A stretch of DNA of 25,205 bases from a virus (taxonomy: Duplodnaviria; Heunggongvirae; Uroviricota; Caudoviricetes), in the IMG/VR virus record IMGVR_UViG_2541047688_000007, positions 1 to 25,205 of that record; one strand, 5' to 3'. This document shows, piece by piece, positions 16,586-23,891 of this stretch. The notes under the pieces were generated by a model. That model was not told the origin of the DNA and ran no database searches. It saw nothing but the letters and a program-made list of their open reading frames with translations. Made by a program: the position numbers and the translations under genes. How positions within the stretch are numbered: position 1 is the stretch's first letter; each line of letters starts with the position of its first letter.

Positions 16586-16763
16586 CATAATCGCCGCTTC
16601 GCCCTTCAAGGTACATGCGAACATTTTTATCAATCATTGCGGAAACAGTCTCAATATGAAAACACTTCTGAGACTCGCTATATAGCAGAACTGAAGTGGT
16701 TTACTGAATTTGGCCACCTGAACAGAGGTGATATGCTCACCTCAGAACAACACAGGTGCCATA

Positions 16764-17066
16764 ATGAAAAAAAGAAATTTCAGCGCAGAGTTTAAACGCG
16801 AATCCGCTCAACTGGTCGTTGACCAGAATTACACCGTGGCAGATGCAGCCAGCGCTATGGATGTCGGCCTTTCCACAATGACGCGATGGGTGAAACAATT
16901 ACGTGATGAGCGGCAGGGAAAAACACCAAAAGCCTCCCCTATTACCCCGGAACAAATTGAAATCCGTGAGCTCAGGAAAAAGCTACAACGTATTGAAATG
17001 GAAAATGAAATATTAAAAAAGGCTACCGCGCTCTTGATGTCAGACTCCCTGAACAGTTCTCGATAA
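16764..17066 (+). CDS. IS911-like transposase OrfA (HTH/leucine-zipper subunit)
   Basis: [51 protein letters not shown]... which I recognise as IS911 OrfA; track start at 16728 is an upstream GTG. Confidence 0.9.
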
Positions 17067-17092
17067 TCGGGAAACTCAGGGCGCGTTATCCT

Positions 17093-17911
17093 GTGGCCAC
17101 TCTCTGCCATGTGTTCGGGGTCCATCGCAGCAGCTACAAATACTGGAAAAACCGTCCTGAAAAGCCAGACGGCAGACGGGCTGTATTACGCAGCCAGGTA
17201 CTTGAACTGCATGGCATCAGCCACGGCTCTGCCGGAGCAAGAAGCATCGCCACAATGGCAACCCAGAGAGGCTACCAGATGGGGCGCTGGCTTGCTGGCA
17301 GACTCATGAAAGAGCTGGGGCTGGTCAGCTGTCAGCAGCCGACTTACCGGTATAAACGTGGTGGTCATGAACATGTTGCTATCCCTAACTACCTTGAACG
17401 GCAGTTCGCCGTGACCGAGCCAAATCAGGTGTGGTGCGGTGATGTGACCTATATCTGGACGGGTAAGCGCTGGGCGTACCTCGCCGTTGTTCTCGACCTG
17501 TTCGCAAGAAAACCAGTGGGCTGGGCCATGTCGTTCTCGCCGGACAGCAGGCTTACCATGAAAGCACTGGAAATGGCATGGGAAACCCGTGGTAAGCCCG
17601 TCGGGGTGATGTTCCACAGCGATCAAGGCAGTCATTATACGAGCAGGCAGTTCCGGCAGTTACTGTGGAGATACCGGATCAGGCAGAGTATGAGTCGGCG
17701 TGGAAACTGCTGGGATAACAGCCCAATGGAGCGCTTCTTCAGGAGTCTGAAGAACGAATGGGTGCCGGCGACGGGCTATGTAAGCTTCAGCGATGCAGCT
17801 CACGCAATAACGGACTATATCGTTGGATATTACAGCGCACTAAGACCGCACGAATATAATGGTGGGTTACCACCAAACGAATCGGAAAATCGATACTGGA
17901 AAAAACTCTAA
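17093..17911 (+). CDS. IS911-like transposase OrfB (DDE catalytic domain; expressed as OrfAB fusion by -1 frameshift)
   Basis: DDE motifs WCGDVTYI / HSDQGSHY / [10 protein letters not shown]; frame is -1 relative to orfA; slippery heptamer A-AAA-AAG at 17015-17021. Confidence 0.9.
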
Positions 17912-17967
17912 CTCGGTGGCCAGTTTTTGTTGACCACTTCAGAACATATAAGTCAGCTGAGGAAGCC

Positions 17968-18333
17968 ATGAAAAAGTTCGAAAACATAACTGTTCTCCAT
18001 GTTGATGACTTTGATTATACAAACCCGGAACTTCTCCCGGAGGTTGTAAAGGCAATAGATGTTGCCGATATAGTGATTAGAGAAAAGAGAATTGTCAAAA
18101 ACAGGCTCGCATGCACTTCAGGAGCAATGACAGAAACAACCTCACAGCAAGATAATTACGAAGGCATTTGTCTGGAGCCTGATTCATTTGCGGTAAATGT
18201 TTATCATTTATTGCATGCAACACAGGTATTACATATGTCCAGTAATCACGAAACGAAAACACTCGGCAGCGAAATTCTGAGTTTTGCATGTGAGTATACA
18301 AAAGCTGCTGCCGAAAAAGAATTAGCGCAATAA
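17968..18333 (+). CDS. hypothetical protein (121 aa)
   Basis: ORF with GAGGAAG SD; no recognised motif. Confidence 0.45.
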   Translation: MKKFENITVLHVDDFDYTNPELLPEVVKAIDVADIVIREKRIVKNRLACTSGAMTETTSQQDNYEGICLEPDSFAVNVYHLLHATQVLHMSSNHETKTLGSEILSFACEYTKAAAEKELAQ

Positions 18334-18527
18334 CAACAAATATGCCCTGAACGTTTATTGCGGTTTTATCGCCGGGGATTATTACAACCTTAATCCACAG
18401 GAGGCTTTATTGTGACTTTTATAAAGAATATGGCATCACACAAGACCGCCTGCCTTATTGCACAATACGGTGAAAATTACATGCATATTGCCTGCTTATT
18501 TCTGCGTAAAGCATACGGGAGATAATA

Positions 18528-18728
18528 ATGCATCAGAAAACAGCAGAACACGAACAAACCAGAGTATTGCTGACCATCAAAAACGGGAAAGTAATATTCA
18601 TTCGCCATGTTCATGACGATGAACTTGTAGGAACTCTTTCAACATTCCTGTTTATTGCAGAAAAGGCAGGATATGACGTTATTGCACCAGCAGATGAAGA
18701 TGAAGATGAAGATGAAGATGAGGAATAA
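18528..18728 (+). CDS. hypothetical protein with acidic DE-repeat tail (66 aa)
   Basis: ORF ending ADEDEDEDEDEE, encoded by a GATGAA hexanucleotide tandem repeat. Confidence 0.4.
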   Translation: MHQKTAEHEQTRVLLTIKNGKVIFIRHVHDDELVGTLSTFLFIAEKAGYDVIAPADEDEDEDEDEE

Positions 18729-18733
18729 ATATC

Positions 18734-21338: not shown

Positions 21339-21348
21339 GGAGTAACAC

Positions 21349-21861
21349 ATGACCACTATAACCAAAGAGCGACTGCTGACAATCAAGCAGTGGCGCGAAA
21401 CATACGGACCGGGTAGCAACGTTGTGCTTCCAGCAGAAGAAGCGGAAGAGCTGGCACGGATTGCGCTGGCATCACTGGCAGCAGAGCCGGTGGCAAAGAT
21501 TATAGCTCATTACCCATTAGGAGTTGACGTAGGCAAACAAAAATTCGTACAGGCCATTAGAGAGCTTCCTGACTTTGGCGGATATCTATTTGCCGCCCCT
21601 CCAGCGCCGATAGTGCCGGAAGAAATGTATTGGCAGGATGCGCCAGTTGAAGGCAGCAGCAAAGCGGCTGCATACGCTACAGGCTGGAACGATTGCCGCG
21701 AAGCCATGCTTCAGTCCGGAAACTTTCGGGAAAATAAAGATTCGTCAACCAATAATTTTCGGAAAATCCCGGAAGCGTCAACCAGCTCTCCGGTAACTCC
21801 GGATGGTTGGATAAGCTGTAGTGAGCGAATGCCGGACGACAGGCAGGAGGTGAATCAATGA
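21349..21861 (+). CDS. hypothetical phage protein, DUF551-like C-terminus
   Basis: 170-aa ORF; C-terminal DGWISCSERMP resembles the W-x-x-E-R-(L/M)-P motif I associate with DUF551. Confidence 0.5.
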   Translation: MTTITKERLLTIKQWRETYGPGSNVVLPAEEAEELARIALASLAAEPVAKIIAHYPLGVDVGKQKFVQAIRELPDFGGYLFAAPPAPIVPEEMYWQDAPVEGSSKAAAYATGWNDCREAMLQSGNFRENKDSSTNNFRKIPEASTSSPVTPDGWISCSERMPDDRQEVNQ

Positions 21862-21945
21862 GCTGGCCTGATGCAATCGTAACTCTGGGGGTGGTATTCG
21901 CAGCAGCGTTTGTTGTGTTCTCGATTTGTCGATGGGGATAACCAC

Positions 21946-22188
21946 ATGTTCGCTTTGATTCAACGCGGTCAGATATACACGGACAGAGCCGGATACCCCG
22001 TGGTGATTACTCGCATCACTGAGCACTCAGTGTTCTTTCGACGGATGGACGGACGATCCGGGCGGGTACGCATTGGTGAGTTAAACTGCCTGTTCGAACA
22101 TATTGACCACCAGGAGTACCGCAAAATTCTCGCGGACACTGAGCAGGAAAAGCACCTGAAAAAATTACGAGCCATAAAAAGGAAGTAA
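21946..22188 (+). CDS. hypothetical protein (80 aa)
   Basis: ATG 21946 with GGGGA SD; MFALIQRGQIYTDRAGYPVVITRITEHSVFFRRMDGRSGRVRIGELN... Confidence 0.45.
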   Translation: MFALIQRGQIYTDRAGYPVVITRITEHSVFFRRMDGRSGRVRIGELNCLFEHIDHQEYRKILADTEQEKHLKKLRAIKRK

Positions 22189-22520
22189 AGAATGAATAAA
22201 GCATTTGAACGATGGGTCCACCAGCGTTACGGCAATCGCTATGACCTGACGCGAGATGTTGACGGCTTCTACTGTCGTGAAGTTGTGAAGCGAATGTTTG
22301 AAGTGTGGTGCCACTGCCGTGGGCTGAGTGTTGTGTGAGGTAATACATGGGCAATGTGATTCAACTGGCTCCCAATGAATGGGTTTGTGAAAGCGTTCTT
22401 ATCGCAATTACCGGGCTCAAACCAGGCACAATTCTTCGGGCCCGGAAATGAAGTGGTTTACTGAATTTGGCCACCTGAACAGAGGTGATATGCTCACCTC
22501 AGAACAACACAGGTGCCATA

Positions 22521-22823
22521 ATGAAAAAAAGAAATTTCAGCGCAGAGTTTAAACGCGAATCCGCTCAACTGGTCGTTGACCAGAATTACACCGTGGCAGA
22601 TGCAGCCAGCGCTATGGATGTCGGCCTTTCCACAATGACGCGATGGGTGAAACAATTACGTGATGAGCGGCAGGGAAAAACACCAAAAGCCTCCCCTATT
22701 ACCCCGGAACAAATTGAAATCCGTGAGCTCAGGAAAAAGCTACAACGTATTGAAATGGAAAATGAAATATTAAAAAAGGCTACCGCGCTCTTGATGTCAG
22801 ACTCCCTGAACAGTTCTCGATAA
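22521..22823 (+). CDS. IS911-like transposase OrfA
   Basis: Identical translation to copy 1 OrfA. Confidence 0.9.
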
Positions 22824-22849
22824 TCGGGAAACTCAGGGCGCGTTATCCT

Positions 22850-23668
22850 GTGGCCACTCTCTGCCATGTGTTCGGGGTCCATCGCAGCAGCTACAAATAC
22901 TGGAAAAACCGTCCTGAAAAGCCAGACGGCAGACGGGCTGTATTACGCAGCCAGGTACTTGAACTGCATGGCATCAGCCACGGCTCTGCCGGAGCAAGAA
23001 GCATCGCCACAATGGCAACCCAGAGAGGCTACCAGATGGGGCGCTGGCTTGCTGGCAGACTCATGAAAGAGCTGGGGCTGGTCAGCTGTCAGCAGCCGAC
23101 TTACCGGTATAAACGTGGTGGTCATGAACATGTTGCTATCCCTAACTACCTTGAACGGCAGTTCGCCGTGACCGAGCCAAATCAGGTGTGGTGCGGTGAT
23201 GTGACCTATATCTGGACGGGTAAGCGCTGGGCGTACCTCGCCGTTGTTCTCGACCTGTTCGCAAGAAAACCAGTGGGCTGGGCCATGTCGTTCTCGCCGG
23301 ACAGCAGGCTTACCATGAAAGCACTGGAAATGGCATGGGAAACCCGTGGTAAGCCCGTCGGGGTGATGTTCCACAGCGATCAAGGCAGTCATTATACGAG
23401 CAGGCAGTTCCGGCAGTTACTGTGGAGATACCGGATCAGGCAGAGTATGAGTCGGCGTGGAAACTGCTGGGATAACAGCCCAATGGAGCGCTTCTTCAGG
23501 AGTCTGAAGAACGAATGGGTGCCGGCGACGGGCTATGTAAGCTTCAGCGATGCAGCTCACGCAATAACGGACTATATCGTTGGATATTACAGCGCACTAA
23601 GACCGCACGAATATAATGGTGGGTTACCACCAAACGAATCGGAAAATCGATACTGGAAAAAACTCTAA
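22850..23668 (+). CDS. IS911-like transposase OrfB (DDE domain; -1 frameshift fusion with OrfA)
   Basis: Identical translation to copy 1 OrfB; slippery site at 22772-22778. Confidence 0.9.
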
Positions 23669-23891
23669 CTCGGTGGCCAGTTTTTGTTGACCACTTCAAA
23701 AGAATGCTGGATGGTTGGAAGAGAGTATATTCACGTATCACCAGACGGTAATCCAAAGCCTTCCAGTGAATGTATGTATAACAGAAAAGCAATAGATGCC
23801 TGGGTCGCCTCAATGAAAAACAAACAACCCAGGTGATTTAATATCATGAAATATGTAAGCTCGTATCGCTCTTGGGCGTCTGGAGGTATCG

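Follow-up and report, generated by a model that had tools for sequence, protein, structure and literature searches.

We analysed a stretch of viral DNA of 25,205 nucleotides (Caudoviricetes; IMG/VR record IMGVR_UViG_2541047688_000007, positions 1 to 25,205), which we call the window. The window is part of a phiP27/PhiR49_2-type lambdoid prophage and holds two copies of the insertion sequence (IS) ISEc52, which belongs to the IS3 family and is related to IS911. Copy 1 occupies 16692-17941 and copy 2 occupies 22449-23698, both on the + strand, and the gap between them is 4507 bp (17942-22448). Directly upstream of copy 1 is an intact helix-turn-helix (HTH) regulator gene (16082-16585, + strand), while copy 2 lies within the excisionase gene xis and is followed by an intact tyrosine integrase gene (23892-25205, + strand, 437 amino acids). 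Comparing the window with itself at an offset of 5757 gives 0 mismatches over the 1250 bp of the element (100 % identity), and the identity breaks off directly beyond both ends. A preliminary description of this DNA had placed two copies in direct orientation about 4.5 kb apart with the right coordinates and had asked for the nucleotide alignment that this comparison supplies. Its report of identical OrfA and OrfB proteins in the two copies follows from the complete nucleotide identity.

Each copy is bordered by a short direct repeat of its own. Copy 1 is preceded by ...GCAGAAC and followed by GAACATAT, with a 4-bp target duplication GAAC at 16688-16691 (left) and 17942-17945 (right). Copy 2 lies between ...CCCGGAAA and AAAGAATG, with a 3-bp target duplication AAA at 22446-22448 (left) and 23699-23701 (right). 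Phage PhiR49_2 is uninterrupted at both sites, where it reads GCAGAACATAT and CCCGGAAAGAATG, so that GAAC and AAA each occur once. Both sites are likewise IS-free in a prophage of the E. coli urine isolate E02, with the duplicated bases present once each. By sequence comparison, these empty sites prove GAAC and AAA to be genuine target duplications, which goes beyond the argument from chance (1/256 or 1/64). The two different duplications had been called correctly to the base in the preliminary description.

The E02 prophage, which adjoins yecE (DUF72) and carries neither IS, is a closer relative than PhiR49_2. It is 99.5 % identical to window positions 1442-16691, 99.98 % identical to positions 17940-22452 and 99.93 % identical to positions 23699-25205. 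About ten complete E. coli genomes hold an IS-free 5.5-kb version at 99.7-100 % identity. Judged by these alignments, what separates the copies is the prophage's own native sequence at its original location and not transposon cargo. This intervening early-left DNA (17942-22448, + strand, 4507 bp) contains ten accessory open reading frames (ORFs) of unassigned function and the 5' part of xis. The ten, all full length, comprise phrog_5451, phrog_340, phrog_1515, DUF4752, two Ea22-like ORFs, phrog_1714, DUF551, DUF4222 and an ORF of 48 amino acids. Of 35 genes annotated in the E02 prophage and compared with the window, only xis is broken; the other 34 are full length, and 33 of them are 97.7-100 % identical to their E02 counterparts. 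The gene after the integrase in related genomes is yecE (DUF72). The window itself ends at 25205 with the integrase stop codon, which overlaps the yecE start in those genomes; this suggests that the prophage region was trimmed at a gene boundary, leaving the bacterial flank and the att site outside the window.

Copy 2 enters xis after codon 34 of 78. The truncated gene (codons 1-34, 22347-22451, + strand) ends in a TGA stop that the IS contributes with its first three bases, and comparison with the intact gene places the displaced 3' part (codons 35-78 and the stop) at 23702-23836 on the same strand. Once reconstructed, Xis is recognised by the Pfam family DUF1233 (putative excisionase) at 9.5e-33. 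A lambdoid excisionase of the DUF1233 type is a full-length ORF of about 78 amino acids directly upstream of int; here that gene is split. By analogy with lambda, the prophage is probably unable to excise without Xis supplied in trans, and early-left (pL) transcription into int is probably interrupted. An exact look-up of the 34-residue truncated Xis returned four contigs. Those are not further xis::IS alleles: in each of them an intact xis is cut by the end of the contig at codon 34 (...CGGAAAGA).

Copy 1 is intergenic, between the HTH regulator gene and an ORF of 121 amino acids (17968-18333). The end of the copy lies 26 nt, and the right GAAC 22 nt, 5' of the ATG of this ORF at 17968. Since copy 1 is intergenic and points in the direction of the operon, a polar effect on the downstream genes is probable. 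A scan of 15900-24200 for promoter and terminator consensus sequences gave counts no higher than those expected from shuffled sequence and is uninformative on polarity or on an int promoter. The right inverted repeat (IRR) contains an outward -35 (TTGACC); inspection by eye found no well-spaced -10 in either right flank, and we claim no hybrid promoter.

Taken together, we consider it about 90 % probable that the window records two separate ISEc52 insertions into the leftward early operon of a yecE-integrating lambdoid E. coli prophage, with copy 2 breaking xis.

The element has the features of the IS3 family. Its ends, TGAAGTGG...CCACTTCA, are imperfect inverted repeats that terminate in 5'-TG...CA-3' and are complementary at 25 of their first 36 positions. 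Two overlapping ORFs are arranged in phases 0 and -1, the codons of orfA starting at positions 0 mod 3 and those of orfB at positions 2 mod 3, and the overlap carries a putative frameshift site of the A6G type. In copy 1, orfA (16764-17066, + strand) encodes 100 amino acids with an HTH_Tnp_1 domain, and an A AAA AAG slippery heptamer at 17015-17021, in the frame of orfA, is the predicted site of a programmed -1 frameshift. The shift would yield an OrfAB of 382 amino acids (16764-17911). The copy 2 coordinates are those of copy 1 plus 5757 (orfA 22521-22823, slippery site 22772-22778, end of OrfAB 23668, all on the + strand). Against NF033516, the NCBIfam model for IS3-family transposases (cut-off 160), the OrfAB fusion reaches 380.6 bits, and it combines an N-terminal HTH with a C-terminal rve (DDE) domain (Pfam HTH_Tnp_1 1.4e-14 and rve 1.6e-31). 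The sequence shows residues D227, D287, E323 and K330, whose DD(35)E-K spacing we take to be typical of the IS3 family. The RNA 3' of the heptamer is predicted to fold into a three-way junction (z = -2.5 for the single sequence); the frameshift stimulator of IS911 has a similar fold, an agreement that counts as weak evidence. An Rfam search found no family match inside the IS. With this coding capacity and its terminal repeats, ISEc52 looks intact here; it also looks active.

The preliminary description had called the elements IS911-like. This stands for their architecture; as an identification it gives way to ISEc52, the element being 94.1-94.9 % identical to IS911. We found the window element to be 100 % identical to many chromosomal and plasmid copies in E. 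coli that the annotation pipeline PGAP labels 'IS3-like element ISEc52 family transposase', and 99.8 % identical to the element of Salmonella phage SEN22. With the IS911 annotated in phage Sf6 it shares 94.88 % identity (1186/1250), and with E. coli copies labelled as IS911 family 94.1-94.2 %. At the protein level, OrfA shares 98 % identity with its counterpart in the Sf6 IS911, and for OrfAB 367 of 382 positions match. In ISfinder practice about 95 % nucleotide identity is the usual limit for a separate IS name, and the element falls at or just below this limit relative to IS911, a borderline value that refers to the Sf6 and E. coli copies and not to the original Shigella dysenteriae sequence. 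The naming uses PGAP-labelled copies as a proxy for the ISfinder reference. On these comparisons the right name is ISEc52, a very close relative of IS911, and 'IS911-like' fits as a description and not as an identification. The boundary between the two names is blurred in current annotation because the partial elements of E. coli K-12 traditionally called IS911, which are 97.5 % identical to the window element, carry the PGAP label ISEc52 family. A preprint gives an ISfinder match to ISEc52 with a bit score of 2478, which fits an element of 1250 bp (bioRxiv 10.64898/2026.07.28.741313).

Short target duplications (3-4 bp for the IS3/IS911 group) are a further mark of the family, seen here in both AAA and GAAC. 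To place their lengths we sampled 12 other copies, 11 of ISEc52 plus the IS911 of Sf6: the duplication is 3 bp in 10 of the 12, absent in 2 and 4 bp in none. The AAA of copy 2 is of the typical length and the GAAC of copy 1 belongs to a rarer 4-bp class. A spacer or direct repeat of 2-4 bp is allowed for the IS911 group (PMC3299598). Given the empty site, a 4-bp stagger is the simplest reading of copy 1. No target-site consensus was seen among 12 duplicated sites with their flanks, 2 in the window and 10 elsewhere.

By analogy with the biochemistry of IS911, the transposition pathway in the window most likely involved a circular intermediate. OrfAB would be made by frameshifting and a figure-eight would form, followed by a circular copy of the element with abutted ends. 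The circle would then integrate into a staggered cut while the donor copy is kept (copy-out-paste-in). The copy-out-paste-in route, the circle intermediate and the OrfAB frameshift have been described for IS911 (PMC1636345, PMC3299598). Each insertion would have used a staggered cut of its own, of 4 bp (GAAC) for copy 1 and of 3 bp (AAA) for copy 2. Because 100 % identical copies occur in unrelated strains and plasmids, the identity of the window copies is silent on the source of copy 2, which may be copy 1 or another genomic copy. Movement of ISEc52 in the laboratory has been reported in E. coli Nissle (bioRxiv 10.64898/2026.07.28.741313). Neither the element nor the mechanism is new; novelty is confined to the two insertion sites.

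ISEc52 is also present in other temperate phages and prophages. E. coli CUVET17-1136 has a related yecE prophage in which an identical ISEc52 (positions 5051-6300 of sequence L003) lies at a third site, again in the early-left arm and directly behind an Ea22-like gene. Its duplication is GAC, and it is an independent insertion in the same neighbourhood. In the Salmonella diarizonae phage SEN22 (positions 12001-13250 of L002) ISEc52 interrupts a P22-type antirepressor gene with a duplication AAT, and in the E. coli bloodstream isolate AHB22 (positions 61-1310 of L011) it interrupts a P22-type antirepressor gene and has no duplication. The SEN22 and AHB22 elements are 99.8-100 % identical to that of the window. 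ISEc52 is an element that recurs in temperate-phage regulatory genes across genera.

There is good reason to expect that RecA-dependent recombination between the 1250-bp direct repeats would delete 5757 bp. One IS would be lost in this way, together with the ten accessory ORFs and the 5' part of xis. The preliminary description had identified the early-left accessory genes as the interval at risk, which holds for the ten ORFs; it overlooked the 5' part of xis, and with it the position of copy 2 in the excisionase gene. We searched for the arrangement elsewhere using as queries the left junction of copy 1, which would survive the deletion, and the left junction of copy 2. There was no match to either left junction in 5426 complete E. 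coli genomes, IMG/VR, the GTDB genomes or the JGI metagenomes, so these collections yielded neither a single-insertion intermediate nor a deletion product. None of the phage records with ISEc52 is of the phiP27 type. The arrangement is a singleton in the searchable data.

Several points weigh against two separate insertions with loss of excision. The arrangement is without an independent replicate, neither junction being present in any other sequence searched, and the 4-bp duplication of copy 1 is unmatched among the 12 sampled other copies. The coexistence of both copies on one molecule in every cell is presumed from the assembled sequence. The excision defect is deduced from the lambda paradigm, and a cognate Xis from a co-resident prophage could complement it.

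It is conceivable that xis::ISEc52, instead of being neutral damage, was selected as a 'locking' of a useful prophage, preventing its loss by excision or its lethal induction. That xis is the sole broken gene among the 35, and that the prophage bears methyltransferases together with a defence-type pair of an NsnA/PD-T4-2_A-like DUF262 protein and a HEPN protein, would fit such a role. The allele is however a single occurrence, absent from the 5426 E. coli genomes and the other collections, with no sign of spread or recurrence, and an insertion into a 237-bp gene, in a 4.5-kb neighbourhood with another insertion, is compatible with chance. We regard selection for locking as unlikely.

A different kind of explanation is that the arrangement is an artefact of assembly or of a mixed population, in which each molecule carried one IS or none and either a consensus IS was placed at both sites or subpopulations were merged. 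Perfect duplications of the right size at both sites, matched by the empty sites, would not be created by a mis-placed repeat. Complete identity of the copies would be expected if a consensus repeat filled both sites, but such identity is unsuspicious here, 100 % identical copies being common in unrelated strains. The uniqueness of the arrangement among all collections searched speaks for an artefact, and a mixture of single-insertion subpopulations is a possible form of it. Overall we judge an artefact to be very unlikely. We give as little credence to the joint proposal that the copies form a functional 7-kb compound transposon moving the Ea22-like, DUF4752, DUF551 and DUF4222 genes to other replicons and that the xis knockout is a selected 'domestication' fixing a yecE prophage that carries defence genes. 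An origin of the pair as a composite transposon, a 7007-bp unit (16692-23698) that arrived as IS-cargo-IS, would fit the direct copies and the correctly oriented outer ends (left inverted repeat, IRL, at 16692 and IRR at 23698), but the left outer flank is GAAC and the right one AAA, each of the two IS copies is bordered by a matching duplication of its own, the 'cargo' is collinear with and 99.98 % identical to the same region of IS-free prophages, and the empty-site comparison, which reveals neither a shared outer duplication nor foreign cargo, rules this origin out, in agreement with the independent insertions proposed in the preliminary description.

Two separate insertions, the preferred reading, have practical consequences for annotation. 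The elements should be named ISEc52 rather than IS911, and an annotation of the prophage as probably excision-defective (xis::ISEc52) is warranted. The direct repeats of 1.25 kb are also where short-read assemblies break and where the 5.76-kb deletion can arise. Biologically, the window adds one more case of the IS-driven decay or immobilisation of E. coli lambdoid prophages, an ordinary event that carries little weight beyond annotation.

The window has further features away from the two insertions. On the - strand at 12800-13701, two tandem modules 656 bp apart each consist of a C4 antisense RNA (Rfam RF01695; 12800-12887 and 13456-13543) and an isrK small RNA (sRNA; RF01394; 12912-12988 and 13568-13644). 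The modules lie inside the 5' part of adjacent genes of the Rha family (12191-13042) and the ash family (13039-13701), which are 39 % identical to each other. The C4/isrK pair looks like a duplicated control unit of the P1 immI-like / IsrK anti-repressor kind. Within a replication-initiator-like gene (10856-11782), a 20-nt repeat occurs three times at 11260-11425 (CTTGCGGTTCATGTTTTGAA and variants), accompanied by a nearby inverted repeat, and these repeats are probably origin iterons.

The region between Q and the tRNAs (3354-7863) is an island missing from PhiR49_2 and looks like a defence-type island. Two DNA methyltransferases (3354-4403 and 6823-7863) flank a pair formed by a DUF262 protein (5005-6162; PADLOC NsnA 5.6e-46 and PD-T4-2_A 4e-27) and the gene beside it (6165-6854), which is annotated in E02 as a MAE_28990-family HEPN-like nuclease and has no PADLOC match. 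On the - strand at 2780-3304, an STnc100 sRNA (2780-2979) is followed by the tRNAs Arg-tct, Arg-tcg and Met-cat (the last given as Ile in the E02 annotation). The STnc100/tRNA region is where Shiga toxin (Stx) phages carry stx; there are no toxin genes here.

Set beside known systems, the element itself shows no difference from ISEc52 as named in ISfinder (IS3 family), with the same length of 1250 bp, the same termini and 3-bp duplications as the rule. It also closely resembles IS911 of Shigella dysenteriae, the model of the IS3 family, in its length (1250 bp versus 1249 bp in Sf6), its TGAAGTGG...CCACTTCA ends, the 100-residue OrfA, the A AAA AAG site, the 382-residue OrfAB and the 3-bp duplication, and the mechanism is presumed to be identical. 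It differs from IS911 in its IRL, at positions 9-11.

Two known replicons offer the nearest parallels for the insertions. The IS911 in the nin region of Sf6 is an example of the same IS lineage in a temperate phage, where the non-essential ninG is disrupted and the duplication measures 3 bp; the IS is readily lost by deletion (PMC5630979). Sf6 carries one copy in the opposite genome arm and is viable, whereas the window carries two copies, one of them in an excision gene. The IncA/C plasmid pP10159-5 of Citrobacter freundii resembles the window in having two separate ISEc52 copies in one replicon. On that plasmid the ISEc52 insertions are accompanied by adjacent deletions with loss of backbone functions (PMC6140695), whereas the window retains both target duplications intact and has undergone no deletion.

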